This document shows positions 14,654 through 40,769 of a stretch of DNA of 64,000 bases, one piece after another. Location of the stretch: positions 6,389 through 70,388 of the forward strand of contig CAYMHB010000001.1 in assembly GCA_964390145.1 (NCBI GenBank), in the 5' to 3' direction. The notes under the pieces are model-generated. The model had not been told where the DNA came from. It did no database searches and was given only the letters and a program-made list of their open reading frames with translations. The stretch comes from an uncultured Oscillospiraceae bacterium (GTDB taxonomy: Bacteria > Bacillota > Clostridia > UMGS1883). Position 1 is the first letter of the stretch, and every line of letters starts with the position of its first letter. Both the position numbers and the translations under genes were made by a program.

Positions 14654-15894
14654 TTGTTATCCTCTGTCTTAAACATTCCCAGTTTTTCTGCCATTTTAAT
14701 TCGTCTTGCGATTACATCGTTTTCTTTTATATCTTTTTCAGTTTTTGCCACATCCTTACCAGATGTTTTCAGGAAAATCTGAATAAATCGATGCGCCCAG
14801 CCTACAGGAAGCAATATCGGGTGCTTTTTTACATATGAAAAACGCTCTTTTATTGCATCTGCAGGTGGAAACAGCATTGAAAAAACACTGCGCTCGCTTT
14901 TGAAAAGTCTGTAAAAAAGATATTTGAAAGTGCCTTTTTTTGAACGTTTCTGAGTAAAGATTGAATAAAATCTTGCTCTTTCTTTCTCATTCTTGGCGAA
15001 GACTCCGCCGATTTCACAGTCTTCAAGAAGTTCGGGGAGACCGCACCCTTCGGTAATGGCATCGTGAAATTCCATACCGAAAAATCTTACTCCTATTCCC
15101 TTTACCACGCGGATAAGCGTGTCATAGCCGAGTTTTTTCATAAGGGAATTGTAGCTTTCCCAATCAATTTCTTTTTCGTATTCCTTCATGTATAACAGAA
15201 TGTCCATCATTTGCCTTACACCCGTGGCATCGTTCACAAGATGCTTGATAAGGTGCGCCGAAAGATAAACAAGGTTGTCCTGTATGCCGAGAGTATATGT
15301 TCCGTCAGGAAGTCGGTTGAAATCCTCGTTATAACGGATTTCGTCGTCAAGTATTATATCATTTGTTGGCGCTGAATGAAGTGCTACATGAACCTCCAGA
15401 AGACCGCCCATTTTATGATACGCCTTCATGTGATGGTCATATTTTGAACGTTCTTCACATTCGTAGCCGAGTTCTGTGAGAATTTTTACTGACTTTTCCT
15501 CGTCTTTGCTATCAATTAAGATATCCATATCGCTGGAAATACGTGCTTCGGGCATAGCATAAAGACGCGCGATGGTTATTCCTTTGAGCACAGCGCATTT
15601 TATACCGTTTTCTTCGAGTTTTTTAAGCGAAGAAAGGTTAAACTCTATTTTCTGAATGTTGAGTGCCACATTTGAAAGGAAGGTTTTTTCAAGCGTAGTG
15701 TAAATTTCGGGCGGGATTTTAACCTCTCCGCTCTCGATTTTTGCTCGCACGCCACTATACACGACATCCCACACCTCTTGCGCGATGGAAAGGTCGCGTA
15801 TTTTACTTAAGTTTTTACAATATTGGGGTTTAACTTCTCTCCCGAGTGCTGATGCACCGAAGAGATAGAGCATATTTGTAAAATCCTGTGTCAT
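14650..15894 (-). CDS. Uncharacterised nucleotidyltransferase-fold protein (NTP_transf_5-like)
   Basis: 414 aa. ARISSDMDILIDSKDEEKSVKILTELGYE resembles the PF14907-type uncharacterised nucleotidyltransferase motif. Overlaps both neighbours (1 nt and 4 nt). Confidence 0.5.
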   Translation of the reverse strand: MTQDFTNMLYLFGASALGREVKPQYCKNLSKIRDLSIAQEVWDVVYSGVRAKIESGEVKIPPEIYTTLEKTFLSNVALNIQKIEFNLSSLKKLEENGIKCAVLKGITIARLYAMPEARISSDMDILIDSKDEEKSVKILTELGYECEERSKYDHHMKAYHKMGGLLEVHVALHSAPTNDIILDDEIRYNEDFNRLPDGTYTLGIQDNLVYLSAHLIKHLVNDATGVRQMMDILLYMKEYEKEIDWESYNSLMKKLGYDTLIRVVKGIGVRFFGMEFHDAITEGCGLPELLEDCEIGGVFAKNEKERARFYSIFTQKRSKKGTFKYLFYRLFKSERSVFSMLFPPADAIKERFSYVKKHPILLPVGWAHRFIQIFLKTSGKDVAKTEKDIKENDVIARRIKMAEKLGMFKTEDNK

Positions 15895-16901
15895 TAGTTT
15901 TCTCCGTAATATTCAAAGTACCATTTTGCAAAGCTGTTAAGTCCGTCCTCTATTGATGTGGACGGCTTGAAATCAAAATCACGCTGTAAGTCGCTTACAT
16001 CGGCATAGGTCTGATAAACGTCGCCCATCTGCATAGGAAGGTATTCTTTTTCTGCAGTCTTGCCGATGGCTTTTTCAAGGGTTTCGATAAAATACATGAG
16101 CTTTTCGGGATTGTTGTTTCCTATGTTATAAACCTTTGCCATATCGCCGTTTTCGTCGGGAGCAGGGGGATTTAAGAGCATATTCATAATACCCTGAACT
16201 ATGTCATCCACATATGTAAAGTCGCGGTACATATCGCCATTGTTGAAGATTTTTATGGTTTCGCCCTTCATAATCTTCTTTGTGAAAGAAAAATATGCCA
16301 TATCGGGTCTGCCGTAGGGACCGTAAACAGTAAAGAAGCGAAGTCCCGTAGACGGGAATTTATAAAGGTGGCTGTATGTAAATGCCATAAGCTCGTTGGA
16401 TTTTTTTGTTGCTGCATAAAGGCTTATGGGGTGATCAACATTATCATCAGTTGAAAAAGGCGTCTTTTTCTGATTTCCGTAAACGGAGGAGCTTGACGCG
16501 TAGATAAGATGCTCGACCTTATGATGGCGGCACGCCTCCAGAATATTATAAAATCCGATAATATTGCTTTCTATATACGCGTCGGGATTGTCTATGGAAT
16601 ATCTTACACCTGCCTGCGCCGCAAGGTTTACGATAATGTCGGGGCAGTACGTTTCAAAAGCACTTTCCACCGCGCTTTTATCGGCAAGATTACCCTTGAC
16701 GAAGTTAAACTTCTCGTACTTTTTGAGTATTTCAAGGCGGCTCTCCTTAAGAGAAACCTCGTAGTAATCGTTGAGGTTATCAAAACCGATTACCTCGCCG
16801 CCCTCCTCGAGTATTCTTTTAGACAGATGAAAGCCGATAAAGCCTGCCGCACCTGTAACGAGTATTTTTTTGCTGCCGTCATATTTTTTAAAGTTAGCCA
16901 T
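15894..16901 (-). CDS. NAD-dependent sugar-nucleotide epimerase, UDP-glucuronate 4-epimerase-like
   Basis: Rossmann motif VTGAAGFIGFHL and SDR catalytic motif YAATKKSNE. The 335-aa length and overall pattern resemble Cap1J/LpsL-type UDP-GlcA 4-epimerases. Substrate specificity is inferred. Confidence 0.6.
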   Translation of the reverse strand: MANFKKYDGSKKILVTGAAGFIGFHLSKRILEEGGEVIGFDNLNDYYEVSLKESRLEILKKYEKFNFVKGNLADKSAVESAFETYCPDIIVNLAAQAGVRYSIDNPDAYIESNIIGFYNILEACRHHKVEHLIYASSSSVYGNQKKTPFSTDDNVDHPISLYAATKKSNELMAFTYSHLYKFPSTGLRFFTVYGPYGRPDMAYFSFTKKIMKGETIKIFNNGDMYRDFTYVDDIVQGIMNMLLNPPAPDENGDMAKVYNIGNNNPEKLMYFIETLEKAIGKTAEKEYLPMQMGDVYQTYADVSDLQRDFDFKPSTSIEDGLNSFAKWYFEYYGEN

Positions 16902-16912
16902 ATTTTTACTCC

Positions 16913-18046
16913 TTAAGCCAATTCTATTCCGCTTGCCGTTTGCGCAAAGTAAACGCCGAACTTTCCCTCAAGCTCGGGAAATGCGTTAAGATATTTGCAT
17001 GTTACCTCGGCTTTTATCTTTTCTTCAAAGTCAGGATTTATAAGCGCCATTGCACAGCCCTTAAAGCCTGCACCACTGAATCTTCCACCGTATATACCTT
17101 CGGTTTCTTTCATTATCTCGTGGATTTTTATAAGCTGCGGAGAGCCTGTCTCATAGTTTTTTATACTGCTCTCTCCGCTTTCAAATGAAAGTTTGCCAAA
17201 GTTTATAATATCTCCGTTTTTCCAGAATTCTTTTCCTTTTTCCACTCTTTCAGTTTCGGTGTAATAGTGAGTTGCTCTTTTCCTCCAGTTTTCAGGAAGC
17301 TTGTCCTTGTATTCTTCAAAAACTTCTTTCGGCACATCTCTTAGGCGGGTGTCTGCAAATTTTCCGTATTCCATACCAGAAAGCGCCTTGAGCATATATG
17401 CCGCACTCTTGAGTTCATCAACGCGCATATTGAACTGACTTCCGACAAGACTTCTTTCAAGTCCGCTGAAAAATATCGCTATTTTGAATTTGGGCATATC
17501 GGGGTTTGCAGGGATAAGCTCGTACGAGTCGTCCTTCATATCGATATATAAAAGATGGTTTTTCTTCGAATATATCTCACACGACTGGTCAAGCTTTCCG
17601 CAGCTTACTCCAACGAACTCGTTTTCTGCCCAGAGCGCGGTCTTTACCATTTCGTCCTGTGTAAGTTTTATGTTATTGACACGGCAAAGTGCATTCAGAA
17701 ACGCAATTATTACAGCGGCGGACGAAGAAAGCCCTCCGATGGGCAGACTTCCCTTTATATGCGCCTTGATTCCATAGGAAAGGTCGTGATTTCTTTTGAT
17801 AGAAGCCACGGCACCGCGCAGATAATCCGCCCAGTCGTTCTCTTTCACAAGATTTTTATTGAACTGAAATTCAACCTTTTTTTCAAAATCGTGGCTTTCA
17901 AGGTATATCTTTCCGTCGTCTGTTTTTTCGTATTCAATTTCAATACCTTTATCAATGGCAAAACCGCTTACAATGCCAAACTGATGGTCTATGTGAGCAC
18001 CCAAGGGACACACGCGGTAAGGACAAAATGATATTTCTTTACTCAT
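16913..18046 (-). CDS. GHMP-family sugar 1-kinase (galactokinase-like)
   Basis: GHMP motif LPIGGLSSSAAVIIAF, an N-terminal sugar-binding-like motif RVCPLGAHIDHQFG and C-terminal GGRFSGAGFKGC. 377 aa. Confidence 0.65.
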   Translation of the reverse strand: MSKEISFCPYRVCPLGAHIDHQFGIVSGFAIDKGIEIEYEKTDDGKIYLESHDFEKKVEFQFNKNLVKENDWADYLRGAVASIKRNHDLSYGIKAHIKGSLPIGGLSSSAAVIIAFLNALCRVNNIKLTQDEMVKTALWAENEFVGVSCGKLDQSCEIYSKKNHLLYIDMKDDSYELIPANPDMPKFKIAIFFSGLERSLVGSQFNMRVDELKSAAYMLKALSGMEYGKFADTRLRDVPKEVFEEYKDKLPENWRKRATHYYTETERVEKGKEFWKNGDIINFGKLSFESGESSIKNYETGSPQLIKIHEIMKETEGIYGGRFSGAGFKGCAMALINPDFEEKIKAEVTCKYLNAFPELEGKFGVYFAQTASGIELA

Positions 18047-18073: not shown

Positions 18074-18613
18074 TTATCTTTTATGCTTTACGAAGGATTT
18101 TCCTTCGCTTTTGAGCGAATCAAATCTTCCCTCGTCCCTGTATTTGATTACTTTCGCAGGGTTTCCGCAGGCTATACCAAGCGGAGGAACATCCTTTGTG
18201 ACAACGGAGCCTGCACCGATTATCGCACCGTCACCGATTGTTACACCTGGTAGTATAATTACGTGACTGCCAATCCAGACATATTCGCCGATTGTTACTT
18301 CTTCAAATTTAAAACGCTCATCGAAAGGAAGGTACTGCAAATCTTCAGAATCGTAGTTGTGCTCGCTTGAAAATATTTCAACATCATGAGCGAAAATCGT
18401 TCCGTCACCTACTGATATGCCTCCCTGTCCGTTAAATGTACAGTTTGCATTTATAAGAATATTATTTCCAAGTTCAATATATTTTTTATGGTAAAAATAA
18501 CTTCTTCCCCTGAAAACAATTTTTTCTCCACATTTTTTAAGTGACTTTTTAATTTCCTCATTTCTCTTCTTCTCTCTGAGATTACGGATTTTTGATATTA
18601 GCATAAAAGTCAT
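18074..18613 (-). CDS. Hexapeptide-repeat (LbH) sugar O-acetyltransferase
   Basis: Left-handed beta-helix repeats ([47 protein letters not shown]). Confidence 0.75.
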
Positions 18614-18631: not shown

Positions 18632-19651
18632 TTATCTGTTATCGTACATCTTCTTGTAGTATTCCTTGTATTCGCCGCTGATGATATTTTCCCACCACGG
18701 CTTATTGTCAAGATACCACTTTATTGTCATTTTTATTCCGTCGTCAAACTTGGTCGCAGGAAGCCAGCCAAGCTCTGCGTGAATCTTTGCAGGGTCGATT
18801 GCGTAGCGCATATCGTGTCCCTTGCGGTCTGTAACGTATGTGATAAGGTCCTCGCTTTTGCCAAGTTCTTTTATGATGATTTTGACAACGTCTATATTTG
18901 CCCTTTCGTTGTGACCGCCGATGTTATAAACCTCGCCCACTTTTCCGTTATGGATGATAAGGTCAATCGCGCTGCAATGGTCCTCAACATAGAGCCAGTC
19001 GCGGATGTTGAGTCCTTCTCCGTATACGGGGAGAGGCTTATCTGCAAGTGCGTTTGCAATCATAAGGGGAATAAGCTTTTCGGGGAAATGATATGGTCCG
19101 TAGTTGTTTGAGCAACGTGAAATTGTTGCAGGGAAATTATATGTCCTGCAGTATGCCTGAACAAGAAGGTCTGCCGCAGCCTTTGATGCGCTGTACGGAC
19201 TTGAAGTATGTATGGGAGTTTCTTCCGTAAAGAAGAGGTCGGGACGGTCAAGGGGTAAATCTCCGTAAACCTCATCAGTTGAAACCTGATGATATCTCTT
19301 TACCTCAAACTCACGCGATGCGTCCATAAGCACCTGTGTACCGAGAATGTTTGTTTTGAGGAACACCTCGGGGGTTTCGATGCTTCTGTCAACGTGGCTT
19401 TCTGCCGCGAAGTTTACAACAACATCAAACTTTTCTTCGCCAAAGAGTTTTCTTACGGCTTCGCGGTCTGTTATATCGCCCTTTACAAATTTGAAGTTCT
19501 CGTTTTTCATCGCTTCTTCAAGCGTTTCGAGGTTTCCTGCATATGTAAGCGCGTCAAGACACACCAGTTTATAGTCGGGGTGTTTACTGAGCATATAGTA
19601 TATGAAGTTACTGCCTATAAAGCCTGCGCCACCTGTTACTAAAATTTTCAT
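18632..19651 (-). CDS. rfbB: dTDP-glucose 4,6-dehydratase
   Basis: MKILVTGGAGFIGSNF, QVSTDEVYG, YSASKAAADLLV. 339 aa. Confidence 0.9.
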   Translation of the reverse strand: MKILVTGGAGFIGSNFIYYMLSKHPDYKLVCLDALTYAGNLETLEEAMKNENFKFVKGDITDREAVRKLFGEEKFDVVVNFAAESHVDRSIETPEVFLKTNILGTQVLMDASREFEVKRYHQVSTDEVYGDLPLDRPDLFFTEETPIHTSSPYSASKAAADLLVQAYCRTYNFPATISRCSNNYGPYHFPEKLIPLMIANALADKPLPVYGEGLNIRDWLYVEDHCSAIDLIIHNGKVGEVYNIGGHNERANIDVVKIIIKELGKSEDLITYVTDRKGHDMRYAIDPAKIHAELGWLPATKFDDGIKMTIKWYLDNKPWWENIISGEYKEYYKKMYDNR

Positions 19652-19656
19652 AGTAA

Positions 19657-20532
19657 TTACTCCTTCACAAGTTCAAGAATATATTTGCCGTAGTCAGTCA
19701 TTTTAAGTTCTTCACCGATTTTACGAAGTTGCTCTTTATCAATAAATCCGCGGCGGTATGCAATTTCTTCAATGCAGGACACGTACATTCCCTGAACGCT
19801 CTGCACGCTCTGCACGAACTGGCTTGCCTGGAGCATACCCGAGGGAGAGCCGGTGTCAAGCCACGCCATACCACGATTAAAGAGTCTGACCTTGAGAGTG
19901 CCCCTCTTAAGGTATTCGTTATTAACTGCTGTGATTTCGATTTCTCCGCGCGCGGAGGGTTTTACATTCTTTGCAATCTCAATTACGCTGTTGTCATAGA
20001 AGTAAAGACCCGGAACTGCATATTTTGACTTGGGATTTTCTGGTTTTTCCTCGATAGAAACAACATTGAATTTATCGTCAAATTCCACTACACCAAAGGC
20101 TCTGGGGTCGCTTACGGGATAACCGAAAATCGTTGCGCCGATATTATGCTCCATTGCTTCCCTCAGTGTTTTGGTGAAGTGCTGTCCGTAGAAAACATTG
20201 TCTCCGAGCACAAGACACACGCTGTCGTCTCCTATGAATTCTTCGCCTAAAATGAAGGCGTCTGCAAGTCCGCGAGGAGTTTCCTGCACCTTGTAGGAAA
20301 GCTTTATTCCAAGCTGCTCGCCATCTCCTAAAAGCTGCTCGTACATAGGAGTATCCTCGGGAGTGGATATTATAAGAATTTCGCGTATTCCTGCCAAAAG
20401 AAGTGTAGAAAGAGGATAATAGATAAGCGGCTTGTCATAGATGGGTAAAAGCTGCTTTGAAACTGTTTTGGTCATGGGATAAAGTCTTGTTCCCTTTCCG
20501 CCTGCGAGAATTATACCTTTCATATTTTTCAC
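19657..20532 (-). CDS. rfbA: Glucose-1-phosphate thymidylyltransferase
   Basis: [49 protein letters not shown]. 291 aa. The true start may be the Met 3 codons in. Confidence 0.9.
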
Positions 20533-20538
20533 GTCCCC

Positions 20539-21627
20539 TTATTTCAAAATTATATCACAAATTTTATTTACATCATCTTTTGAAAGCCCCTCATACATCG
20601 GGAGTGTGAGGATGTTTTTGGAAATTTTTTTTGCTATTGGGGTTTCGCCTCTGAATTTTCCTTTATAGCAGAAAAATTCGTTTGTGATGGGATAGAAATA
20701 CTTTCTTGCAAAAATGCCCTCTGCTGAAAGCTTTTCCGCTATCTCATCACGATTTTCTTTATATCCGTCGAATAAAACGGGGAAATATGCGTGGTTCTGT
20801 GTAACACCTTTTTGCACAGGACAAAGTTTAATGCCGTCCACTCCTTCAAGGCGTTCGCGGTAGGTGTCTTCGGCAATTTTTCGGCTTTCTATGCAGTCAT
20901 CAATGCTTTTAAGATTGCAAAGTCCCATCGCTGCCTGAAATTCATTCATTTTGGCATTGGTTCCGAGCATATCAACGCTTTCGGGACTTGTTATACCAAA
21001 GTTGCGAAGTGATGCAATCTTGCCTTTGAGTGACTTATCAGCGTATGTAAGGCATCCGCCCTCGATGGTATTAAACACCTTGGTTGCGTGGAAGCTGAAC
21101 ATACTGCAATCCCCAAAGTTGCCGATGCCCTTATTCCCTATTTTTACGCCGAAAACGTGTGCTGCATCGTAGATAACTTTAAGGTTATGCTTCTTTGCAA
21201 TAGCGTCTATTTTCTCTACGTCACACACATTTCCGTAAACGTGGACGGGCATAATGGCACTTGTTTTGTCGGTGATAAGCGATTCGATTTTGTCTGCATC
21301 TATCGTATATGTATCGGGATTCACATCGCAAAAAACGGGAGTGAGTCCCGAGTCGACTATTGCGTGGGTAGTCGATGCAAACGTAAAAGGTGTCGTGATA
21401 ACCTCGCCCGTAAGATTGAGTGCACGAATTGCTGTGCAGAGCGCAAGGTGTCCGTTCGTGAAAAGCGATACGTTGTCTACGCCTAAATATGCACCCACCT
21501 TGTCCTTGAATTCGTTATGAATCGGGCCCATATTGGTAAGCCATCGTGATTCAAATATTGGTTTGATTGCTTCGCAATACTCCTCGTATGAGGGCATAGA
21601 CGAGCGCGTTACATTGATTTTTTTCAT
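20539..21627 (-). CDS. DegT/DnrJ/EryC1/StrS-family PLP sugar aminotransferase (probable dTDP-4-keto-6-deoxyhexose 4-aminotransferase)
   Basis: PLP-lysine context FSFHATKVFNTIEGG and AIMPVHVYGNVCD. 362 aa. No 3,4-ketoisomerase is seen in the window, so C-4 amination is the simpler reading. That is an inference. Confidence 0.75.
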   Translation of the reverse strand: MKKINVTRSSMPSYEEYCEAIKPIFESRWLTNMGPIHNEFKDKVGAYLGVDNVSLFTNGHLALCTAIRALNLTGEVITTPFTFASTTHAIVDSGLTPVFCDVNPDTYTIDADKIESLITDKTSAIMPVHVYGNVCDVEKIDAIAKKHNLKVIYDAAHVFGVKIGNKGIGNFGDCSMFSFHATKVFNTIEGGCLTYADKSLKGKIASLRNFGITSPESVDMLGTNAKMNEFQAAMGLCNLKSIDDCIESRKIAEDTYRERLEGVDGIKLCPVQKGVTQNHAYFPVLFDGYKENRDEIAEKLSAEGIFARKYFYPITNEFFCYKGKFRGETPIAKKISKNILTLPMYEGLSKDDVNKICDIILK

Positions 21628-21648
21628 AGTGAATTTCCCTTTTCGCTT

Positions 21649-22662
21649 TTATTCTTCAATTATTTCAAGTGTAATATTTTTATATGCTTTGACTCCGTTT
21701 TTCGCAGTCAGAAGTTTCTCTTTATCTACTTTTTCTCCCCTTACCCATTTCACAATAGCAAGGGGTAAATCAACTCCTGCTCCGTGACTGAAGGGATATC
21801 CTCCGCCGAAGCGGGCATTCATTTCAAGAATGTATGGGGTGTTATTCACCAAGAACATATCGCAGTCAAGATTTGCAATATGTCCGAGTATTTTTCCTAT
21901 TCTTGCCGCTTCACTTGAAATGATGCTGTTGTTTTCTATCTGGGCAATATCGGTTTCGCCTGCACGCATATCAATTTTTCTTCTTACCACAGATGAAACA
22001 AAGTTACCGTCAAGGTCATTTATTACATCAATTCCGTACTCTTGTCCGAAAAGTTTCTCCTGCATTATTATAGAATGTTGCAAGTCAGCCTTTGATTCGT
22101 ATTTAAGATATGAATTAGCCATCGCCTTTTTCGCTTTTTTATAAAGGACTGTCAGCTCTTCTTCATTGTCTGCAATAAATACACCTATGGAACCCATACC
22201 CCATCTGGGTTTTATGACTATCGGATATGATGTTTCACCATTTTTGATTTCCAAAAGCAGTTTATCCATATCTATATAGGTCTTGGGAGTATAGAAATTA
22301 TTACTGCTCAAAAATTTATATGTTTCCCATTTGTCGTTGCATATATGTATAACCTCTGCATTCGAAACAATAACCCTTATTCCCATTTCTTCAAACTGTG
22401 ATTTGTTTTCTGCAAGAATGGGCAAATCCACATCAAACAGAGAAATTATAATATCTATACTGTTTTTTGTGCAGTATTCTTTGAGGAAAGGAATATACTC
22501 CGCATCAAAACACAAAGGCGTTATAACGGATTTATCCGCATATTCAAACACATATGTATATTGAGAATTCGATACATGAACTTCTCCTGTGCCTCCTATC
22601 GCTTTTCTCAGGTATTCAATCATATATCCGCGTCTTCCCACGGAGGTTATCAAAATATTCAT
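21649..22662 (-). CDS. ATP-grasp domain ligase (337 aa, PylC/CPSase-like small type)
   Basis: MNILITSVGRRGY..., PIVIKPRWGMGSIGVF, QEKLFGQEYGIDV, ILEMNARFGGGYP. Confidence 0.7.
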   Translation of the reverse strand: MNILITSVGRRGYMIEYLRKAIGGTGEVHVSNSQYTYVFEYADKSVITPLCFDAEYIPFLKEYCTKNSIDIIISLFDVDLPILAENKSQFEEMGIRVIVSNAEVIHICNDKWETYKFLSSNNFYTPKTYIDMDKLLLEIKNGETSYPIVIKPRWGMGSIGVFIADNEEELTVLYKKAKKAMANSYLKYESKADLQHSIIMQEKLFGQEYGIDVINDLDGNFVSSVVRRKIDMRAGETDIAQIENNSIISSEAARIGKILGHIANLDCDMFLVNNTPYILEMNARFGGGYPFSHGAGVDLPLAIVKWVRGEKVDKEKLLTAKNGVKAYKNITLEIIEE

Positions 22663-23114
22663 AAGCTCTCCTCCTGCATCTCATAGGTCAGTTTAATATC
22701 GCCCTCACGGTCGGATAAAGTGCTGTGAAATCCGAAATTTTCATATAGCCTTATTGCTTTTTGATTAGTGCTGTGTGTATACAGAAAAACTTTTTTCATT
22801 CCCGCTTTCGCACTCTCGCTTATAAATCTTTCAAGAAGACTTTTGGCTATAGATTTTCCCTGAAACTCGGGAAGGACACACAGCACAGATACGTACGCAT
22901 TCTTTGTTTCTGTATCGTTTACATATCCGCATATAACTCCTGCAAGCCCATTTTCACAGCAGGCAGCCACAACCTTCCCCAAAAGCAATAATTTTTCAGT
23001 CAGCACTTCTAACTCCTGTTTGCTGCTCAGCGGAATCGGAAACAGATTGTCCGCTTTTTTGAAAAAGCTTAATAATTCAGTTTTGTCTTTGATTGCAAGT
23101 TCGCTGTATTCCAC
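22659..23114 (-). CDS. GNAT-family N-acetyltransferase
   Basis: 151 aa. Acetyl-CoA-binding region VLPEFQGKSIAKSLLERF and C-terminal AIRLYENFGF. 4-nt overlap with the downstream ATP-grasp gene. Confidence 0.75.
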   Translation of the reverse strand: MEYSELAIKDKTELLSFFKKADNLFPIPLSSKQELEVLTEKLLLLGKVVAACCENGLAGVICGYVNDTETKNAYVSVLCVLPEFQGKSIAKSLLERFISESAKAGMKKVFLYTHSTNQKAIRLYENFGFHSTLSDREGDIKLTYEMQEESL

Positions 23115-23142
23115 TTTATTAACACTGCTTTCTTATCAACTG

Positions 23143-24387
23143 TTAATAGATTATTTCTTTATCGTATATATCTCTTAACATCATAGGCTCGTTTTGTGTA
23201 CTGTAAACCTCAATGGCAGCATTTACACGTTTTATATTTTCATATAGCTCCTCTTTGGTGCGTGCTTTGATGAGAAATGCGCCTACCCGATTTTTGCTTG
23301 CCATACCGGGGTCAATCTCTGTGCCCTGTGTTTTAGTAATATAGAACTTTTCGATTTTTCCGTCTTCTAAAAGCTTTTCATATCCCACTATGCGGTCAAA
23401 TATGCCTTCACTTGCATAGATGAGGTTTGTGGCATACAAAAATTCAGGAGATTTGATTTCGATATTACTTTCTTTTTCAAGGAATGAATCTACCGCCACA
23501 TCGATTATATCAATTCCTGTAATAAGTCTGAGCATCTGATAACTTAATCCGCCGCCTATTCTGGGGGCAAATTCGATTACACTTATCTCATCATCCTTTA
23601 CAATCGCCTGGAAAAACATAGGAGTATTTTTGAGTTTGAATGCTTTTGCAATATTATTTGCAATTATCCCGATTTCATTTTGTACATTTTCAGATACTTC
23701 TGCGGGTACAACAGAGCCTACTGACTGCAGTTCATCGGCATTATCCATAAAAAACTTTCTTTTCTGGCGAGTCATTATTACCTGTGCCTTACCATTTTTT
23801 ATGTAGCAATCCACCTGTATTTCCATGCCCTCTTTAAATTCTTCGATGATTGCATTGTGAGTTCTGCTAAGCGAAAGTGCATCTTTAAGATAAATTTCTA
23901 CCTCTTTTTCATCAAGTGCCTTTCTGACACCTTTTGAGCCATTGCAATCTACGGGCTTTACAACAAGGGGGAATTTCATTCCCGTTATGTCATAATTCTC
24001 CAAAGAGGTCGTGCAGACATATTTAGAGGTAGGAATTCCGTTTTCAACGAAAATGGTTTTCATAAGCTCTTTATTTGTGACATCAAGCGCAATTTTGTAA
24101 CTATATGGTTTTGTCAGCCCCAGCTTTTCCGCGGTGTAACATGCTGAGATATTTGCCTGATCAATACAGGTGCTTATAACGAGATTTGCGCATTTTTCCT
24201 TGGCAATTTCAAGCACCTTATCGTAATCGAGCGTGCTTTCCCTGATATGCTCGTCTGCGTATTGGGCGGCGGGAGGATTTTCAAGATAATCAATCAAAAC
24301 AGTCTTGTATCCTCTGGCTTTCAGGTTTTGCACAAGCTCTATATGGGGAGATGTGCCACCTAAAATAATTGCAATATTTTCAGTCAT
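23143..24387 (-). CDS. ATP-grasp domain ligase (414 aa, L-amino-acid-ligase / carboxylate-amine ligase-like)
   Basis: Pre-ATP-grasp N-domain (IAIILGGTSPHIELVQNLKARGY), FPLVVKPVDCNGSKGV, IIEEFKEGMEIQVDC, VIEFAPRIGGG. Confidence 0.7.
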   Translation of the reverse strand: MTENIAIILGGTSPHIELVQNLKARGYKTVLIDYLENPPAAQYADEHIRESTLDYDKVLEIAKEKCANLVISTCIDQANISACYTAEKLGLTKPYSYKIALDVTNKELMKTIFVENGIPTSKYVCTTSLENYDITGMKFPLVVKPVDCNGSKGVRKALDEKEVEIYLKDALSLSRTHNAIIEEFKEGMEIQVDCYIKNGKAQVIMTRQKRKFFMDNADELQSVGSVVPAEVSENVQNEIGIIANNIAKAFKLKNTPMFFQAIVKDDEISVIEFAPRIGGGLSYQMLRLITGIDIIDVAVDSFLEKESNIEIKSPEFLYATNLIYASEGIFDRIVGYEKLLEDGKIEKFYITKTQGTEIDPGMASKNRVGAFLIKARTKEELYENIKRVNAAIEVYSTQNEPMMLRDIYDKEIIY

Positions 24388-24417
24388 AATATGTTTCTCC
24401 TCTTTTTTTGAGGTAAA

Positions 24418-25509
24418 TTATCTGCCAAACAGTTTTCTGTTATACTCGTTGGCAAGTGTAGGATAGAAAGGCTGCATATAACGAACCATACCATGAGAAT
24501 TTATCTCAAGTATCTTGAAGCCGTCATCTTCTGCAACTACATCAAGCGTCAACCACGGAGTCATATTGAGATAGTTTCCTATTTCCTCCAGTTTTTCCTT
24601 GATTTCTTTCCAGTTTTTGATTTTGCCTTCTATACGCTCGTTTGAATCAGGGTGAATGTCACACGGTACGAGTTCATTCATATCGTTACTTCCCACAACT
24701 ATTCTCGGGTCGAAAATTTCGCCCTCTTCAAGCGTGAGTCCGCACCAAAAAGTTCCGTCATAATCGATAATATCGCCCCATTTTTTACAGCCCAATCTTA
24801 TTGCCGCTGCGGTAAGATGGGAGCCTGATTCCGCGTCATATGTAAGAACCATCCTCAAAACTACCGGAGAACCTCCTGTCATTTGCAGCAGCTCCCCTGA
24901 TGCGTATGAAAATTCTGTAATCATACTGTCTTTTGTATTTTCAAGCATCGTCTTCAATTCTGTTTCGGAGGTTTGGGCGCTGCTTACAAAGAATTTTTCA
25001 TCACGATATTCAAGTTTTTTAAATCCTTCCCCGTGTCCTCCACGAGCAGGTTTCGATGCAAGAATTTTCTTTTCCTTCAAAAGTTCAATGATGGCTTCTG
25101 CGTTATTGTTTCCACCGCCTGCATGGAGCTTTCGGATGTTTCCGTTATCAATCACAAAATAGTGCTCGGGCATATATTCCTTATAAGGTGCAAGCACATA
25201 CCAGGTTGAAACCTTGTCATCATACCATCTTGAAAATCTGCGGTTTTTATATGCTGACGGAGTATGATACTCAATGTCGGGCATATAGTCCGTGTAGTTA
25301 TCGTCATTTATTCCGTAGCGGAAGATTTTTTCCGAACAGAATCCTCTCTCGTAAGCCCATTCTTTCTGCTGCTCGGTAGTTTTGTGATAGTTATATTTAT
25401 CCTCGTAAAAGTAGTTGACAAGTCTTTCCACGCGAGGCTCAATTACGCCCTGCTCGCGTATCCACTGTCTTAATTCTTCTTTGCGATTTTCTATAAGTTT
25501 ATCTGACAT
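24418..25509 (-). CDS. Sugar-transfer-associated ATP-grasp protein (ATPgrasp_ST-like)
   Basis: 363 aa. ILASKPARGGHGEGF, VVLRMVLTY, HPDSNERIEGKIKNWKEIKEKLEEIG and LDVVAEDDGFKILEINSHG match the layout I recall for PF14397-type proteins. Confidence 0.55.
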   Translation of the reverse strand: MSDKLIENRKEELRQWIREQGVIEPRVERLVNYFYEDKYNYHKTTEQQKEWAYERGFCSEKIFRYGINDDNYTDYMPDIEYHTPSAYKNRRFSRWYDDKVSTWYVLAPYKEYMPEHYFVIDNGNIRKLHAGGGNNNAEAIIELLKEKKILASKPARGGHGEGFKKLEYRDEKFFVSSAQTSETELKTMLENTKDSMITEFSYASGELLQMTGGSPVVLRMVLTYDAESGSHLTAAAIRLGCKKWGDIIDYDGTFWCGLTLEEGEIFDPRIVVGSNDMNELVPCDIHPDSNERIEGKIKNWKEIKEKLEEIGNYLNMTPWLTLDVVAEDDGFKILEINSHGMVRYMQPFYPTLANEYNRKLFGR

Positions 25510-25521
25510 TTTATTGCCCCC

Positions 25522-26985
25522 TTAAATACTGTTTTTTGACTTTTTTAAAGCACCGATAGCCAAAGATAAAATATATTTGAAGGTTTCATTTTTTGTAAGA
25601 TAAGATACCGCCACATACACCATAGCTCCCGCTATTACCTGAACTGCCAATTTCAATATGGCTCCTATCGACACCATTCCGATTGCAAAAACTATAACCG
25701 ACATAGCAACAAGCGGAACTATCGCACTGAAAAGGTCCTTAATCTGCTCTGTGTATTTGTAGTTTATAAGTTTCTTGTTGGGGTATGCATTTATAAAAGA
25801 GCTGAGGATTGTCACAAACACCGTACTCAGCGCAATTGCCATAACGCCATAACGTGCAACTAAGATAAGCACCGCTAATCCCGTTACCTTTTTAATTATT
25901 TCAAGTATTAGGAAAATGTCGCTTCTTCCCATAGCGTTTATCGCCTGAAGATTGGCTGTATGAATGGGTCTCAGCGCCATCGTGAAACAGGCAATCTGTA
26001 AATAAGGAACACAAGGGAGCCACTTTTCCGTCAGCAATAATTTGATAAACGGTTCTGCCACAAGGGCAAAGCCTGCCATAAGGGGAAACATTATGTAACC
26101 GCTTGTGCGGATGGCTCTGCGGCACATTTGCTTTACCTGACTCCTATTTTCCTGACAGTTTGACATCGCAGGGAAGAGCACGCTCTGAATAGATGAATTT
26201 ACGTTTGTTACTACGAGATTCGGAAAACTCTTTCCCTTGTTATAATAGGCAAGGTCTTCAGAGGTATACATTTTTCCTATTACAAGGCTTCGAAGCTCGT
26301 TATAACCGGTTTCAAGAAGTGCTGACAGAAGTATTTTCCAGCCGTAAGAGAACAGGCTTTTGAGTCTTTTTAACGAAAACAAAAGTTTAGGATACCATTT
26401 TACTGTTACAAAAAGAACTATTGTATCAACAGTGGTGTTTATCATATACTGTGCCACAAGTGCCCATATTCCAAACCCCATGTATGCCATTATGATACCT
26501 ACTACGCCTGACAAAAGCGTTCCTCCCAGAGTTGACCAGAAGAATCTTTTGAAAAGCATATGGCGTGATACATACGCGTGCTGTACGCTGTTAATTCCTG
26601 CTACTATGAGCCTTATTCCCATAACTCGCAGAACGGGGCTCAATATCGGCATGGAATAAAATTCTGCAATAAACGGTGCGCTGAAAAACACTATCAGGTA
26701 CATTACCACAGACATTACTATATTAAAATAGAATACCGAGGAGAAATCCGTGTCGTCTGCATCTTTCTTTTGTATGAGTGAATTTCCGAATCCGCTTACC
26801 ACAAAAACATTTGCCAGCGCTATGAATATATTTACCAGCGCTATCGCTCCGTAGTGTGACGGTTCAAGAAGTCTTGCAAGGACAATTGACACTATAAATG
26901 TTACCATCTGCGCGGAAATTCGCTCTGCAAATTTCCACACGAGGCCCGACATTATTTTTGTTTTCAAACCATCTGCTTTTGCCAT
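25522..26985 (-). CDS. wzx: Wzx-type oligosaccharide flippase (MOP/PST family)
   Basis: 487 aa, about 12-14 predicted TM helices. N-terminus (KIMSGLVWKFAERISAQMVTFIVSIVLARLLEPSHYG) is typical of polysaccharide transport (PST) proteins. Confidence 0.8.
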   Translation of the reverse strand: MAKADGLKTKIMSGLVWKFAERISAQMVTFIVSIVLARLLEPSHYGAIALVNIFIALANVFVVSGFGNSLIQKKDADDTDFSSVFYFNIVMSVVMYLIVFFSAPFIAEFYSMPILSPVLRVMGIRLIVAGINSVQHAYVSRHMLFKRFFWSTLGGTLLSGVVGIIMAYMGFGIWALVAQYMINTTVDTIVLFVTVKWYPKLLFSLKRLKSLFSYGWKILLSALLETGYNELRSLVIGKMYTSEDLAYYNKGKSFPNLVVTNVNSSIQSVLFPAMSNCQENRSQVKQMCRRAIRTSGYIMFPLMAGFALVAEPFIKLLLTEKWLPCVPYLQIACFTMALRPIHTANLQAINAMGRSDIFLILEIIKKVTGLAVLILVARYGVMAIALSTVFVTILSSFINAYPNKKLINYKYTEQIKDLFSAIVPLVAMSVIVFAIGMVSIGAILKLAVQVIAGAMVYVAVSYLTKNETFKYILSLAIGALKKSKNSI

Positions 26986-27005: not shown

Positions 27006-28079
27006 TTAACTTTTGAAAATTGCTTCCCACAGCATAGGGAATTCTATCATATATTTCTGTGTCATTTCAAAATTACGTTCTTTTTGTTCTTCACTAAGCA
27101 AAGTGAAAAACTCGTTTTTCGATTTTTCGTCTGAAAAATCAACTTTGTTTAGCGCAAAAATATGACACCCTCTGTCTTTGTAATAGTCCCATGATGTCGT
27201 ATCGTCGTTTATGTATACTTTTTTTCCGAGGGCAAGCATCATTGATATATTTCCCAGTCCCATCTGTCTGTCGGTGTTGAAAACGCCTATATCTATATTG
27301 TTAAGATGCCGTGCATACTCATCCTTCGGCATAAGCTCGGTAATGGGGATAAATCGGTCACCGAATAGCGCCTCCCCTTCAGCTATAACTTTTTTTACAT
27401 ACTCGTCCGTACCTGCGTAGGAAAGCGGAGAATATATAAGCATTTTGGGGAAATCTATCTCTTTGAGCTTTTTTAAAGCATCAATATGATTATTCATCGG
27501 CGCTGCTGAATTCCCGACCTGAATTCTTATAAAGTCATCGGTTTTTTCCTGTTTACTGTCAAGTATTTCGCGGTAGAGCTTTCTCTTATCGTCACAGTAG
27601 CCACCAAGAAAATATTTTGCGCGGGTCTTATACCATTTGCACGCCAGATCGTATTCTCCCTTTACCCAGAAAATAATACCGAATAAATTTCTTATAAAAA
27701 TAGTGCGGACAAATTCTACTATTTTTTCTTTTACGGATTTGTTTTCTTTCCGATGGTAGTATAAATCCATCCCCCACAATACCCAGTACTGCTTTACAAT
27801 GAATTTCGGGACGAGGGATAAAAGAAGCATCAGTTTAGGGTCCAGATAAGCAATATTGTGCAAAAAGACTTTGTCGTATTTGAGTAGAGAAAAAAACATT
27901 TTCCATACGTTTTTGATTTTCATATCAATCATATGAATATTGCCTTCTTCGGGAAGGTCTGTTTCGTTCTTCATACGATATACTAAAAAAATGTTTTCTT
28001 CCTGACTTACTTCCTTATTTATGCGGTCTATAAAATTTTTCGCAAAAACACCGTTTGGAATCAGATGTATGTTTTTCAT
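27006..28079 (-). CDS. WecF-like GT56 glycosyltransferase (TDP-4-acylamino-4,6-dideoxyhexose transferase candidate)
   Basis: 357 aa. Collinear by eye with E. coli WecF. [10 protein letters not shown] aligns with HIWGADLYE, and [20 protein letters not shown] with [48 protein letters not shown] aligns with [28 protein letters not shown]. Confidence 0.7.
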   Translation of the reverse strand: [357 protein letters not shown]

Positions 28080-28971: not shown

Positions 28972-29898
28972 TTACTTATTAAGCGTAATCCAATCTCCTA
29001 ATTTAAGGTCCCATTCTTCAGGCTCAAAGCCCTTCATCCCACTTGCAGGGAAAAATGTTATTTCGCCAAAATAGATTTTTCCGTCTATTTCGTAAAAGTC
29101 CGTTCTCACAAAGGGAATATCCCTAGCAAGAATTTTTGACAATTCAAGCATTTTTTCGAGAGTTTGCGGTTTTTCGTGGTGCTCCGCTCTGTTTGGAATG
29201 TCAGGTCTTTTTATATCCAGATGCTCCCACGAGGTATCGTAAAAGTCCTCGGTAAGTCCTTCCTCTGAAAATCTGCCGTCGCAAACAAGAATAAATTTCG
29301 GCTCGCCGTTGAAATTGTGAATTTTGAAATCCTTAATTTCCTCACCGTTTTCAGATACCATAAATTTTTCGGCAATGATACGCCGCTTTACATCTTTATA
29401 CGGCCATTCGCGGGATGTTATAAAGTAATTTTGCCCAAGTCCTTTTTTTAATTCTCTCTTCACCTTTTTAATGTCAAGCTTGCCCTTATCCTTGCAGATA
29501 CACATTCCAAGTCCGCTGTTGTGATTACACTTTAATACAAATCTTTCGGGAAGAGCGTCAAAATCAATGTCATCTGGAGTGTCCCACACTCCAAGAAGCG
29601 GGATTAAGTATTCCTCACCGATTATCTCTGATATGTAGCTTCTTACAGCGTACTTGTCTACCATCTGCGTGTACTCTTTTTTTCTGTCATAAAGCTTTAT
29701 CCACTGCAGTTTCTCGCTAAAGGTCTGCGGTTTCTTTATGTCAAGCTTTTTATTCATTGTCAGATTGAATTTCGTTTTCAGGTACAGCTTGTCCGAAAAC
29801 AGATGCGCAAGGCACTCCTTACTCAGTACAATCTGCAAAACAATCTTCGGACTGCGTATAGCCTTCTCGAGTTTGCGTAAAATCTTCTTGATTTTCAT
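28972..29898 (-). CDS. TupA-like ATP-grasp amidoligase
   Basis: KKPQTFSEKLQWIKLYDRKKEYTQMVDKYAVRSYISEIIGEEYLIPLLGVWD, FVLKCNHNSGLGMCICKD, DFKIHNFNGEPKFILV and IYFGEITFFPASG match TupA-type (PF14305) proteins. Start set at ATG 29898 (GAGGAG 6 nt upstream) instead of 29976. Confidence 0.75.
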   Translation of the reverse strand: MKIKKILRKLEKAIRSPKIVLQIVLSKECLAHLFSDKLYLKTKFNLTMNKKLDIKKPQTFSEKLQWIKLYDRKKEYTQMVDKYAVRSYISEIIGEEYLIPLLGVWDTPDDIDFDALPERFVLKCNHNSGLGMCICKDKGKLDIKKVKRELKKGLGQNYFITSREWPYKDVKRRIIAEKFMVSENGEEIKDFKIHNFNGEPKFILVCDGRFSEEGLTEDFYDTSWEHLDIKRPDIPNRAEHHEKPQTLEKMLELSKILARDIPFVRTDFYEIDGKIYFGEITFFPASGMKGFEPEEWDLKLGDWITLNK

Positions 29899-31183
29899 CA
29901 AAATCTCCTCTTGTTTCTTCATAGACTTCAGGTGCTTTCGAAGCGAAGTCTTCTGCAATTTCTTTAATGTATTCATCTGAATTTTTTTCGGGAGGTTGCT
30001 TCAGCGCTTTTGTATTTATCAGGAAAAACGCCATCAGTATCCAATGCAGTTTATCATAATAGGTAACCAGTGCTACTTCCATCACCAAGCGTGCAAGGAA
30101 GATTGAGAGAAGCGCCTTGCTGGCATCACTTTTTGAGCTTATTAACGATTTTATGGCTATAACATAAACCAGGTAGTAAAGAATGAAGCCTACAAGTCCG
30201 AAATCAACCAGAATTTCAATAAAGTTGTTGTGAGAGTACACTCCATATCCCGAAACAATTGCATAGTTATTTGCGCCGTATCCAATCATAAGACGGTCTT
30301 TGAAAATGTTCCACCCATCAATTATCATACTAAGTCTTACTTTTGCGGATTCATCGCCGTCACCTTCACCGCTGATAATTTCTGTAGCCTTTTCAATACG
30401 GTGATTTATTAGCTCAAACATAGGAAGTTTCATTACCGCCATAAAACCAATTACAAGTATGGCTGTAATAACTAATATTTTGTAGAGCTTCCTTATTCCG
30501 TACTTTTTGTAAATGAGGAAAAGTACGCCTATACACATCATTATAAGAGCTTTTCTTGAGCCGCTTGCCATTGCAAACAAAAATGCGGTTGAAACTACTA
30601 CTATGTGAAATATCTTGAATCGTTTACGGTAAAACAGATAGTAAAACGCAACTATGATCGTTATCGCGTTCATCATACCAAAGGTGTTTGCCTGACTTAT
30701 TTTTCCTCCGATTCTTACGTTTGCGCTAGTCATAATTTCAATTACCTGAGCGAGTCCATAAGATTTTATACTGTATGCTACAAGAGAAATTCCTGCAATA
30801 TAAATACTTTTGAGTAAATACTCGTGAGCTTCCTCTTCTTCGCTGAAAAGGTTGTATGTCAGAAAGAACAGCAGAAATACCTGCCATATGGTACCCATTG
30901 TAAACGAAGCATAGAAGCTGTTCTTTGCCCAGAAAATTGTTGCATACATCCATGTAACGGTTATATATGCTACCAGCACATTCTTACCAATATGTATTCT
31001 TTTCCTCTGCAAAAGAAAAAGCATTGTGAATCCGGCATATAAAATAAATACGAGTCTTGATATTCCGACAGTTGAAGCTTTGTTTACAAATGTATAGAGT
31101 GTTATCATATATACTGTGAAAAACAGTCTTGCCAGTTTCTCAAATAGCGGTCTATTCTTTTTTAAATTTGCTGTGTTTTCCAT
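29819..31183 (-). CDS. wzy: Wzy-type O-antigen/repeat-unit polymerase (O-antigen ligase-like family), paralog 1, with acidic C-terminal tail
   Basis: About 10-12 TM helices, a loop with SGSRKALIM and HNNFIEILVDFGLVGF. Paralogous to 31225..32496. Start set at ATG 31183 (GGGTGG upstream) to match the MENT... N-terminus of the paralog. Confidence 0.7.
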   Translation of the reverse strand: MENTANLKKNRPLFEKLARLFFTVYMITLYTFVNKASTVGISRLVFILYAGFTMLFLLQRKRIHIGKNVLVAYITVTWMYATIFWAKNSFYASFTMGTIWQVFLLFFLTYNLFSEEEEAHEYLLKSIYIAGISLVAYSIKSYGLAQVIEIMTSANVRIGGKISQANTFGMMNAITIIVAFYYLFYRKRFKIFHIVVVSTAFLFAMASGSRKALIMMCIGVLFLIYKKYGIRKLYKILVITAILVIGFMAVMKLPMFELINHRIEKATEIISGEGDGDESAKVRLSMIIDGWNIFKDRLMIGYGANNYAIVSGYGVYSHNNFIEILVDFGLVGFILYYLVYVIAIKSLISSKSDASKALLSIFLARLVMEVALVTYYDKLHWILMAFFLINTKALKQPPEKNSDEYIKEIAEDFASKAPEVYEETRGDFDENQEDFTQTREGYTQSEDCFADCTE

Positions 31184-31224
31184 AATTCCACCCAAATTCA
31201 ACAAGGTAACTGTTTTATAATAAA

Positions 31225-39915: not shown

Positions 39916-40769
39916 ATGTTGTTTTCCGTCCTGTCTATTGTTTCATTAAAGTCCAGTAAAGCATAGTCTTTCTCGTACTGACTCATACTTTTATCATAAT
40001 ACAAATCGCCGAAAACCTTGTTTACAACAGATATTCTCTTAAGCATAGTAATAAAAGGATTGAATATCTTTGTCATATATATTTTGCGTCCATATACATT
40101 TGCGATTACACGAACCATTTCACTCGTTTTTACATACTCTTTGTTCTGAGGATAAAAATACCCAGCCTCGTTATTCACAACAACAAGCCTTATAAATTCA
40201 CATAAATTGTCTATGTGAAGCATACTGCGGGTATTGGGATAATCGGGAAATACGGGGATTTTTCTTGCCAACTTCGCAAGGCGCGGATAATTGCCCTTAG
40301 AGCCTTTTCCGTAAATCATAGGCGGTCTTATGCTCGCAACCCTGAAGTCATCAGACTCCAGAGCGTGTATCCCCTCATCAGCCTTAAGCTTACTGTCTCC
40401 GTAAAAATTATCAGGCATGGGAACAGTCTGCGAAGTAATAAGAGTATTCTTACTGCCGAAAACTATGGCACTACTCATAAACACAAACTGTCCTACCCCT
40501 GCTTCCTTTGCCTTTTTTGCAGTTTCTATGGTCAGTTCGGTATTTACCGCATAATATTTTGCCTTTTCATCGTCACTTGCATTACCTGTATCCGAATGGG
40601 CAATTCCTGCAACATGAAAAACACTGTCATATGACGAAAAGTCAAATTCCCTCCACGAAGGATTTGTCATATCAACAGTATCAACACTAAAGTCTGTGTA
40701 CTTTTTTATATAGTCTTCAAATGAGGTGCCTATGTAACTGTTTGCTCCGGTAATGAGAACCTTTTTCAT
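39912..40769 (-). CDS. NAD-dependent epimerase/reductase of the CapN type (285 aa SDR)
   Basis: MKKVLITGANSYIG, catalytic YGDSK, short-form SDR. Coupled by a 4-nt overlap to the initiating phosphoglycosyl transferase, as with capM-capN in S. aureus. Confidence 0.6.
   Translation of the reverse strand: MKKVLITGANSYIGTSFEDYIKKYTDFSVDTVDMTNPSWREFDFSSYDSVFHVAGIAHSDTGNASDDEKAKYYAVNTELTIETAKKAKEAGVGQFVFMSSAIVFGSKNTLITSQTVPMPDNFYGDSKLKADEGIHALESDDFRVASIRPPMIYGKGSKGNYPRLAKLARKIPVFPDYPNTRSMLHIDNLCEFIRLVVVNNEAGYFYPQNKEYVKTSEMVRVIANVYGRKIYMTKIFNPFITMLKRISVVNKVFGDLYYDKSMSQYEKDYALLDFNETIDRTENNI

Follow-up and report, generated by a model that had tools for sequence, protein, structure and literature searches.

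What function might three ATP-grasp ligases and a GNAT-family acetyltransferase serve when their genes lie between that of a Wzx flippase and those for a deoxythymidine diphosphate (dTDP)-linked amino sugar? This question is raised by a polysaccharide cluster within a 64,000-nucleotide stretch of DNA, hereafter referred to as the window, from an uncultured Oscillospiraceae bacterium (GenBank assembly GCA_964390145.1, contig CAYMHB010000001.1, positions 6,389 to 70,388). For decades, chemical analyses of O-antigens, capsules and flagellin glycans have revealed amino sugars with amide-linked amino acids or hydroxy acids, and a first-pass annotation of this DNA had proposed that the ligases N-acylate a 4-amino sugar stepwise and that the GNAT caps the product. 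Our best reading, to which we assign a probability of roughly 0.6, is that the ligases N-acylate dTDP-4-amino-4,6-dideoxy-D-glucose (dTDP-Qui4N) with amino-acid or carboxylate units as one chain, the terminal amine of which is acetylated by the GNAT. Comparative genomics strongly backs two elements of this proposal, namely the link of the ligases to an amino sugar and the coupling of the GNAT to one of them, as set out below; the linear three-step chain, its substrates and the part played by a neighbouring GT56 glycosyltransferase are elements that we infer, the single chain being one of two viable readings.

Open reading frames (ORFs) of the window were called and their products searched against Pfam and NCBIfam profiles, with bit scores judged against the curated cutoffs. 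Read along the minus strand, the block consists of the Wzx flippase (25522-26985; Polysacc_synt_3, 337.6 bits), an ATPgrasp_ST-family ligase of 363 amino acids (aa) (24418-25509; PF14397, 50.5 bits, cutoff 31.4), an L-amino-acid-ligase-like (LAL-like) ATP-grasp protein of 414 aa (23143-24387; ATP-grasp_4, 59.8 bits, and LAL_C2, 31.3 bits, cutoff 29.4), the GNAT of 151 aa (22659-23114; Acetyltransf_1, 60.3 bits), a 337-aa ATP-grasp ligase (21649-22662; PylC-like_N, 77.5 bits, ATP-grasp_3, 61.7 bits, and NF009404, 328.9 bits, cutoff 316), a DesI-like sugar aminotransferase of the DegT family (20539-21627; PF01041, 327 bits), the glucose-1-phosphate thymidylyltransferase RfbA (19657-20532; TIGR01207, 465 bits, cutoff 361) and the dTDP-glucose 4,6-dehydratase RfbB (18632-19651; TIGR01181, 499 bits, cutoff 365). 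The ORF coordinates and strand given in the first-pass annotation were reproduced exactly, as was the 4-nucleotide overlap of the GNAT and 337-aa ligase genes (22659-22662), and its domain calls, including that of a fourth, TupA-like ligase discussed below, hold under the profile searches.

The remaining intergenic gaps in the ligase block measure 5-30 nucleotides. A consensus scan of 14-30.5 kb returned promoter-like sites at expectation (36, versus 37.2 ± 6.5 in shuffled sequence) and a modest excess of terminator-like sites (21 versus 14.7 ± 3.8), with no sign of an internal operon boundary in that interval, and we accordingly read the ligase block as a single operon segment. Its ligases belong to three different ATP-grasp families: an alignment of the 337-aa and 414-aa proteins gives 24% identity over 161 aa, and the ATPgrasp_ST protein matches neither. 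Recent paralog expansion of a single ligase was thus ruled out, as pairs share at most 24% identity or none. All three retain intact catalytic motifs (LEMNARFGGG, IEFAPRIGGG and ILEINSHG), the Mg/ATP motif being kept in each.

The amino sugar and its conserved ligase-acetyltransferase module

Concerning the identity of the amino sugar, RfbA and RfbB each exceed their NCBIfam equivalog cutoffs. The DegT protein scores 317 bits against the DesI equivalog TIGR04427, which is below the cutoff of 650, and its best match in the PDB is DesI (2po3, 240 bits), followed by perosamine synthase (181 bits), the 3-aminotransferase QdtB (146 bits) and WecE (110 bits). A scan of genes within and next to the block found no 3,4-ketoisomerase, and the window contains just one intact DegT gene. 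Since the aminotransferase is closest to DesI and no 3,4-ketoisomerase was seen, dTDP-Qui4N is most likely the product, the configuration of the sugar being predicted from a DesI resemblance that lies under the equivalog cutoff. Of the two candidates named in the first-pass annotation, Fuc4N and Qui4N, the DesI-like transaminase points to the latter.

The 337-aa ligase represents a family of more than 6400 homologs (E < 1e-10), most of which are unnamed; the title of NF009404, 'carbamoyl phosphate synthase-like protein', carries no function, and the nearest structure is a structural-genomics entry (PDB 2pn1, E 1e-38). Its E-x-N-x-R-x-G motif (LEMNARFGGG, residues 279-288) is invariant across 12 homologs. 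Within an overall comparison sample of about 130 related loci, a scan of one genome per GTDB species yielded 80 loci of this family at 50-82% identity, mainly in Clostridia and also in Bacillales, Enterococcus, Trichococcus, Fusobacterium, Bacteroides, Spirochaetes, Sumerlaeota and Chitinophagaceae. Neighbours were counted by tblastn with the window proteins in the 58 species-level loci whose flanks measure 5 kb or more on both sides. A DegT gene (at least 40% identity) lies within 10.5 kb of the ligase in 53 of these 58 loci, on the same strand in every case, and within 5.5 kb in 47. RfbA and RfbB are both near the ligase in 34/58 loci, a Wzx homolog lies within 4 kb in 39/58, and the GNAT directly adjoins the ligase in 30/58. 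The exact Wzx-GNAT-ligase order was observed in 17 loci and DegT follows the ligase directly, as it does in the window, in 12.

The order Wzx–GNAT–337-aa ATP-grasp–DegT–RfbA–RfbB consequently recurs widely, with Wzx conserved immediately upstream of the GNAT-ligase module in related loci. What had been described as an insertion into an amino-sugar pathway is not a one-off event, and the expectation that these genes would be tied to dTDP-4-amino-sugar genes in other genomes was borne out, both for this ligase and for the LAL-like family considered in the next section.

The GNAT is translationally and functionally coupled to the 337-aa ligase, a conclusion supported by the gene overlap and by natural fusions. 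Among the 120 best homologs of the 337-aa protein, 12 are fusions of about 490 aa in which the ligase is N-terminal and a GNAT C-terminal, the C-terminal part sharing 36% identity with the window GNAT (E 1e-13). The nearest solved relatives of the GNAT are diamine acetyltransferases, RimI and Naa50/30/60, that is, enzymes which acetylate alpha- or primary amines, and neither WecD nor other sugar N-acetyltransferases occur among its PDB matches at E < 0.01. Its score against the WecD equivalog NF008212 is 22.8 bits, the cutoff being 219. The failure of the WecD model, the PDB relatives and the ligase-GNAT fusions together rule out an assignment as WecD. Taken together, the fusions, the linkage of the module and the relatives of the GNAT support the notion that amino-acid ligation is followed by N-acetylation.

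The 337-aa-family ligase is the only ATP-grasp protein in three loci, two of which (L002 and L036) show the arrangement Wzx-PALP-[ligase-GNAT]-DegT-RfbA-RfbB, the third being L019. In these loci the sugar amine is the only locally made nucleophile, which implies that the 337-aa ligase uses that amine.

The DegT-GNAT-ligase trio was also found, without Wzx, in flagellin glycosylation islands, and as it lies between flagellin genes there it evidently travels independently of the kind of glycan. On the human gut metagenome contigs concerned (L005-L009), the island comprises flagellin, two 750-aa LicD proteins, a second flagellin, DegT, the GNAT, the 337-aa-family ligase, an ornithine/diaminopimelate decarboxylase and a formyltransferase; two radical-SAM proteins and methyltransferases come after it, and the GNAT is truncated in some contigs to fragments of 45-102 aa.

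A second ligase lineage and the multi-ligase loci

The resemblance of the 414-aa protein to L-amino-acid ligases, claimed in the first-pass annotation, was confirmed at the level of domains and predicted fold. The domain test for the LAL family returned an ATP-grasp core together with LAL_C2 above its cutoff, and PDB sequence matches include 4dim, 3vot (E 1.6e-10) and 4wd3. AlphaFold2 models were predicted from alignments without locus-derived rows; that of the LAL-like protein (predicted local distance difference test score, pLDDT, 90.4) matched BL00235 (3vot) in Foldseek with template-modelling (TM) scores of 0.80-0.84 (E 1e-28), followed by RizA (4wd3) and BacD/YwfE (3vmm), and PurT and PurK were nearly as good. 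The similarity to BL00235, RizA and BacD/YwfE thus extends to shared domains and predicted fold, at an identity of just 16-21%. These characterised enzymes link one free amino acid to another in pathways to antibiotics or dipeptides, whereas the family of the 414-aa protein sits in glycan clusters beside DegT, usually with organic-acid enzymes.

That genomic context is strikingly constant. The LAL-like family has more than 1800 homologs and, apart from two or three near-orthologs, the relatives of the window protein share about 50% identity across phyla (Fibrobacter, Prosthecochloris, Tissierella, Flavobacterium and Deltaproteobacteria). Neighbourhoods were counted in 48 metagenome loci with usable flanks, and the related loci (including L010, L012, L013, L098-L176, L177 and L178) share a cross-phylum cassette. 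It contains a DegT gene in 38/48 loci, a 298-aa protein with no Pfam hit on record in 43/48, a C-C_Bond_Lyase protein (PF15617) in 41/48 and MmgE/PrpD in 42/48, accompanied by class-I fumarase alpha/beta subunits (25-29/48), a 2-hydroxyacid dehydrogenase (21/48) and RfbA/RfbB (11/48, and also in Tissierella). The 298-aa protein is 70-95% identical to the Fibrobacter copy and a PDB sequence search returned no match for it; a literature search on the PrpD/fumarase cassette turned up no paper characterising it. The cassette has the look of a hitherto undescribed pathway for the synthesis of a hydroxy- or dicarboxylic acid and its attachment to an amino sugar through an amide bond, as in the N-malyl amino sugars. 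Because DegT is present in 38 of the 48 loci and organic-acid enzymes in 41-43, the acceptor of the LAL-like ligase is likely not a free amino acid; judging from these neighbourhoods it probably uses an amine borne by a sugar as nucleophile, and its acyl donor may be something other than an amino acid.

The third ligase belongs to ATPgrasp_ST, a family which, like the TupA-like family, was reportedly defined by Iyer et al. in 2009. A PDB sequence search with the window protein gave no match. Its AlphaFold2 model (pLDDT 89.7) matched an ATP-grasp peptide ligase, Ddl and ArgX in Foldseek with a probability of 1.0 and a TM score of only ~0.4, and E335 and N337 of its conserved E-x-N motif are invariant. 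The gene adjoins that of the LAL-like protein in ~9/48 loci, in two of which (L106 and L164) it directly precedes the LAL-like gene, as it does in the window. Relatives occur in the LAL cassette, beside the LAL-like gene in Fibrobacter, and in a locus of Flavobacteriales that also encodes DegT, WbqC and a further ATP-grasp protein. The ATPgrasp_ST protein would accordingly be an accessory ligase paired with the LAL-like gene, and the window appears to combine the Clostridial GNAT-ligase-DegT-RfbAB module with such a cassette-type pair, which lacks its acid-making genes here and is placed between Wzx and the GNAT.

Across the GNAT and LAL-like genes (22001-24000) the G+C content is 0.372, as opposed to ~0.42 in the flanks, which is consistent with a mosaic origin of the ligase genes.

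Combinations of this sort are found in other genomes. A 92% ortholog of the window (L001) carries an identical five-gene block, which answers the question of whether the block is conserved in related genomes, and three-ligase blocks recur in L029 (ligase-LAL_C2 ligase-ATPgrasp_ST-CitMHS-DegT) and L049 (GNAT-ligase-LAL_C2 ligase-ATPgrasp_ST-DctM-DegT-Acyl_transf_3-RfbA-RfbB). Among other close relatives, L019 (77%) has the core ligase alone, L017 has one extra ATP-grasp gene and L018 has one extra ATP-grasp gene plus a DctM-type transporter. The number of ligases thus ranges from one to three around a constant core, and gene order across these loci shows the window to be one member of a recurrent class. 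A constant core with variable ligases and with genes for carboxylate import or synthesis alongside fits an N-acyl substituent that is built up stepwise and variably. In 17/58 loci of the 337-aa family (for example L018, L023, L025, L029, L045, L049, L054 and L087), a carboxylate transporter of the DctM or CitMHS type is encoded between the ATP-grasp ligases and DegT, which hints at an imported di- or tricarboxylate, or an acidic amino acid, as ligase substrate.

A proposed route to the decorated sugar and its alternatives

In the route that we propose, RfbA, RfbB and the DesI-like transaminase would supply dTDP-Qui4N. The 337-aa ligase would then convert the carboxylate of an amino acid to an acyl phosphate and couple it to an amine of the sugar pathway, which in the usual context of this family would be the sugar 4-NH2, and the coupled GNAT would acetylate the free alpha-amine to give a residue of the N-(N-acetyl-aminoacyl)-Qui4N type. 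The ATPgrasp_ST/LAL-like pair may add one or two further amide-linked units, be they carboxylate, amino acid or both, to the same substituent, and the resulting product would be a short peptide-like N-acyl chain. The order of these steps may differ, and the ligases could act on the nucleotide sugar or at a lipid-linked stage. The decorated dTDP-sugar would finally enter a lipid-linked repeat unit, possibly via the GT56 glycosyltransferase, and be exported by the adjacent, co-conserved Wzx.

The chemistry expected has precedents. O-antigen residues known from chemical analysis include Qui4N bearing N-acetylglycyl, N-acetyl-D-alanyl or 3-hydroxybutyryl-alanyl groups, Qui3N with N-acetyl-L-alanyl, and N-malyl amino sugars (PMC3210612). 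The N-(N-acetyl-aminoacyl) amino sugars of Gram-negative bacteria are exactly the type of product to be expected of a ligase and a GNAT acting on Qui4N; in Proteobacteria they are known as structures, not as pathways, and our literature search found no paper which assigns ATP-grasp genes to aminoacyl-Qui4N residues or their attachment to defined enzymes. The first-pass annotation had stated that no such pathway was known in Clostridia. That statement has to be revised in the light of the type B flagellin locus of Clostridioides difficile RT027/RT023 (CDR20291_0244-0247), where Fuc3N is N-acylated with Gly-Ala-taurine and where the ATP-grasp protein CDR20291_0245, annotated as 'carbamoyl-phosphate synthetase' (PF13535), lies beside an FdtB-like aminotransferase; in RT027 the mutant lacking this protein loses the peptidylamido sugar (PMC5207246). 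Compared by locus description, both systems combine a Clostridial dTDP-6-deoxy-amino sugar and an amine-linked short peptide (predicted, in the window) with an ATP-grasp gene adjoining that of a DegT-type aminotransferase. They differ in that the C. difficile sugar is a 3-amino sugar made by an FdtB-like enzyme, the target is flagellin, and there is one ATP-grasp and no GNAT cap, whereas the window offers a Wzx/Wzy context and a DesI-like transaminase. The partners of the C. difficile ligase, a FemAB-like acyltransferase and an ornithine cyclodeaminase, were not found among the window genes scanned.

A more far-reaching version of the proposal is possible, at clearly less than even odds: an assembly line, independent of both the ribosome and nonribosomal peptide synthetases, in which a peptide-like chain grows from the 4-amino group of dTDP-Qui4N through the successive action of three unrelated ATP-grasp ligases and is capped by the GNAT, such that gut Clostridia vary their surface antigens by swapping ligases around a constant Wzx-GNAT-ligase-DegT-RfbAB core. 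If true, it would define the long-missing enzymology of aminoacyl amino sugars in bacterial glycans. The variation from one to three ligases suggests how gut Clostridia diversify these antigens, which matters for recognition by phages, antibodies and lectins. With more than 6400 and more than 1800 homologs, the 337-aa and LAL-like families are concrete and very widespread enzyme candidates for such aminoacyl amino sugars, the minimal testable unit being one ligase and a GNAT beside DegT-RfbAB.

Several points weigh against a single chain on one sugar. Both the 337-aa and the LAL-like families appear, from their neighbourhoods, to be first-acting on a sugar amine in their own contexts, and as the window has one intact DegT gene, a linear chain requires that one of the ligases uses a different nucleophile here. 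The window contains neither the acid-pathway genes of the LAL cassette (PrpD, C-C lyase, fumarase and 2-hydroxyacid dehydrogenase) nor carboxylate transporters, and the acyl donors must therefore be ordinary metabolites. GNAT sequence similarity is a poor predictor of substrate. Since a literature search found no biochemically characterised member of any of the three ligase families, every ligase substrate named here is a prediction. Finally, the GT56 gene (27006-28079, minus strand; PF07429, 71.3 bits, cutoff 25), which the first-pass annotation had taken for the transferase of the decorated sugar, is not conserved with the module: it is present in only 7/58 loci of the 337-aa family and absent from the closest ortholog block (L001), and its score against the WecF equivalog NF002756 (292.6 bits) is under the cutoff of 457. 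GT56 is accordingly retained as a weakly linked candidate for that step.

The first of these points bears on the other viable reading, which we consider unlikely, namely that two sugars are decorated separately. The 337-aa ligase and GNAT would make dTDP-Qui4N(N-acetyl-aminoacyl), and the LAL-like and ATPgrasp_ST ligases a second dTDP-Qui4N derivative with a different acyl group, the two being placed at different positions of the repeat unit or used as alternative, heterogeneous substituents. In other loci each ligase family independently provides the only or the first ligase tied to DegT, the two sets differ in evolutionary origin, and the cluster is rich in transferases (three GT4, one GT2, one GT56 and a phosphoglycosyl transferase) and has two Wzy_C genes; however, just one of these glycosyltransferases is from a family known to use dTDP-4-acylamino sugars, and related Clostridial loci carry their extra ligases, one to three in all, inside a single GNAT-ligase-DegT operon, an arrangement more like the stepwise elaboration of one substituent. 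The sequence of events may also be reversed, in that the ligases build a free N-acetyl di- or tripeptide or N-acyl amino acid which the last ligase couples to the sugar amine. We regard this as very improbable; the LAL-like fold is that of enzymes joining free amino acids and the GNAT resembles N-alpha-acetyltransferases that could acetylate a free amino acid first, but the varying number of ligases around a constant core among close relatives suits either order of assembly.

It is improbable, too, that the locus specifies a plain Qui4NAc or Fuc4NAc route in which a WecD-like GNAT acetylates the sugar, GT56 transfers it and the ATP-grasp ligases amidate carboxyl groups elsewhere in the polymer, for example on uronic acids, or make a separate peptide polymer. 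The set of RmlA, RmlB, 4-aminotransferase, GNAT and GT56 does mirror the dTDP-Fuc4NAc branch of enterobacterial common antigen (RffH/RffG/WecE/WecD/WecF), and the GNAT weakly matches the WecD model at the 22.8 bits given above. Unlike that branch, the window has a transaminase that is DesI-like rather than WecE-like (240 versus 110 bits), a GNAT that scores far below the WecD cutoff and lacks sugar N-acetyltransferases among its PDB matches, a GT56 below the WecF cutoff and absent from the orthologous L001 block, and three interposed ATP-grasp ligases, to one of which the GNAT is tied by gene overlap and fusions. As for the carboxyl groups, a TupA-like ligase is present (28972-29976, minus strand; PF14305, 235.4 bits, cutoff 25), characterised TupA-like enzymes amidate glucuronic acid (GlcA), and PGA_cap genes adjoin the TupA-like genes of L001 and L052. 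Nevertheless, tblastn with two UDP-sugar dehydrogenase queries found no match in the 64-kb window, which is the scope of that search, and the tie between ligase and DegT (53/58) is kept in loci and flagellin islands in which no uronic-acid genes were detected. As the ligases track DegT and not uronate genes, uronic-acid amidation was rejected as the main task of the three ligases.

The TupA-like protein itself probably acts separately from N-acylation of dTDP-Qui4N, amidating a carboxylate in the growing glycan, by analogy with Cj1438C. This C-terminal domain of Cj1438 from the Campylobacter jejuni HS:2 capsule system is a biochemically proven ATP-grasp enzyme which acts in the cytoplasm while the capsule is being assembled and forms an amide on one of its sugars. 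It shares the Pfam family PF14305 with the TupA-like protein of the window and differs in family from the three block ligases. Cj1438C activates a sugar carboxylate (C6 of GlcA), to which serinol-P or ethanolamine-P is added, whereas in our reading of the block the sugar supplies the amine. The TupA-like gene co-occurs with the 337-aa ligase in only 6/58 loci, and the carboxylate it would amidate could be one brought in by the N-acyl decoration.

The remainder of the cluster

The polysaccharide cluster is long and co-directional on the minus strand, extending from ~41.4 kb down to ~14.65 kb, with the ligase block forming its 3' half. At its start lies the gene for the initiating phosphoglycosyl transferase, a polyprenyl-phosphate sugar transferase (40766-41389, minus strand), and, in addition to three GT4 proteins, two Wzy_C proteins and one GT2, the cluster encodes FnlA-, WbcJ/FnlB- and WecB-type enzymes for the formation of an N-acetyl-6-deoxy-L-hexosamine. 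Just upstream of the initiating transferase, and not mentioned in the first-pass annotation, lies the frameshifted and truncated remnant of a second DegT gene (41436-41832, minus strand). It matches the intact DegT at 29% identity over roughly residues 15-130, and a second amino sugar may once have been among the products of the cluster.

Also missing from the first-pass annotation is a hexapeptide-repeat acyltransferase encoded directly after rfbB (18074-18613, minus strand), the best NCBIfam matches of which are the O-acetyltransferases LacA, WbbJ and Maa. On this similarity it is probably an O-acetyltransferase outside the N-acyl route, and in L001 its place is occupied by Acyl_transf_3 genes. 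The 3' end of the cluster is formed by three further genes on the minus strand, encoding a galactokinase-like GHMP kinase (16913-18046), an SDR epimerase/dehydratase (15894-16901) and an NTP_transf_5 protein (PF14907; 14650-15894). The trio is kept in L001, and NTP_transf_5 is also found in L015; it may constitute a salvage route to a nucleoside diphosphate sugar through a kinase and a nucleotidyltransferase of an uncharacterised family.

Two consecutive Wzy_C genes (O-antigen polymerase/ligase-like; 29819-31204 and 31225-32496, minus strand) precede the TupA-like gene, and both are present in L001 too. The 3' end of the former overlaps the annotated TupA-like start by ~158 nucleotides and the TupA-like copy of L001 is 285 aa in length; the true start of the TupA-like protein probably lies further downstream than annotated.

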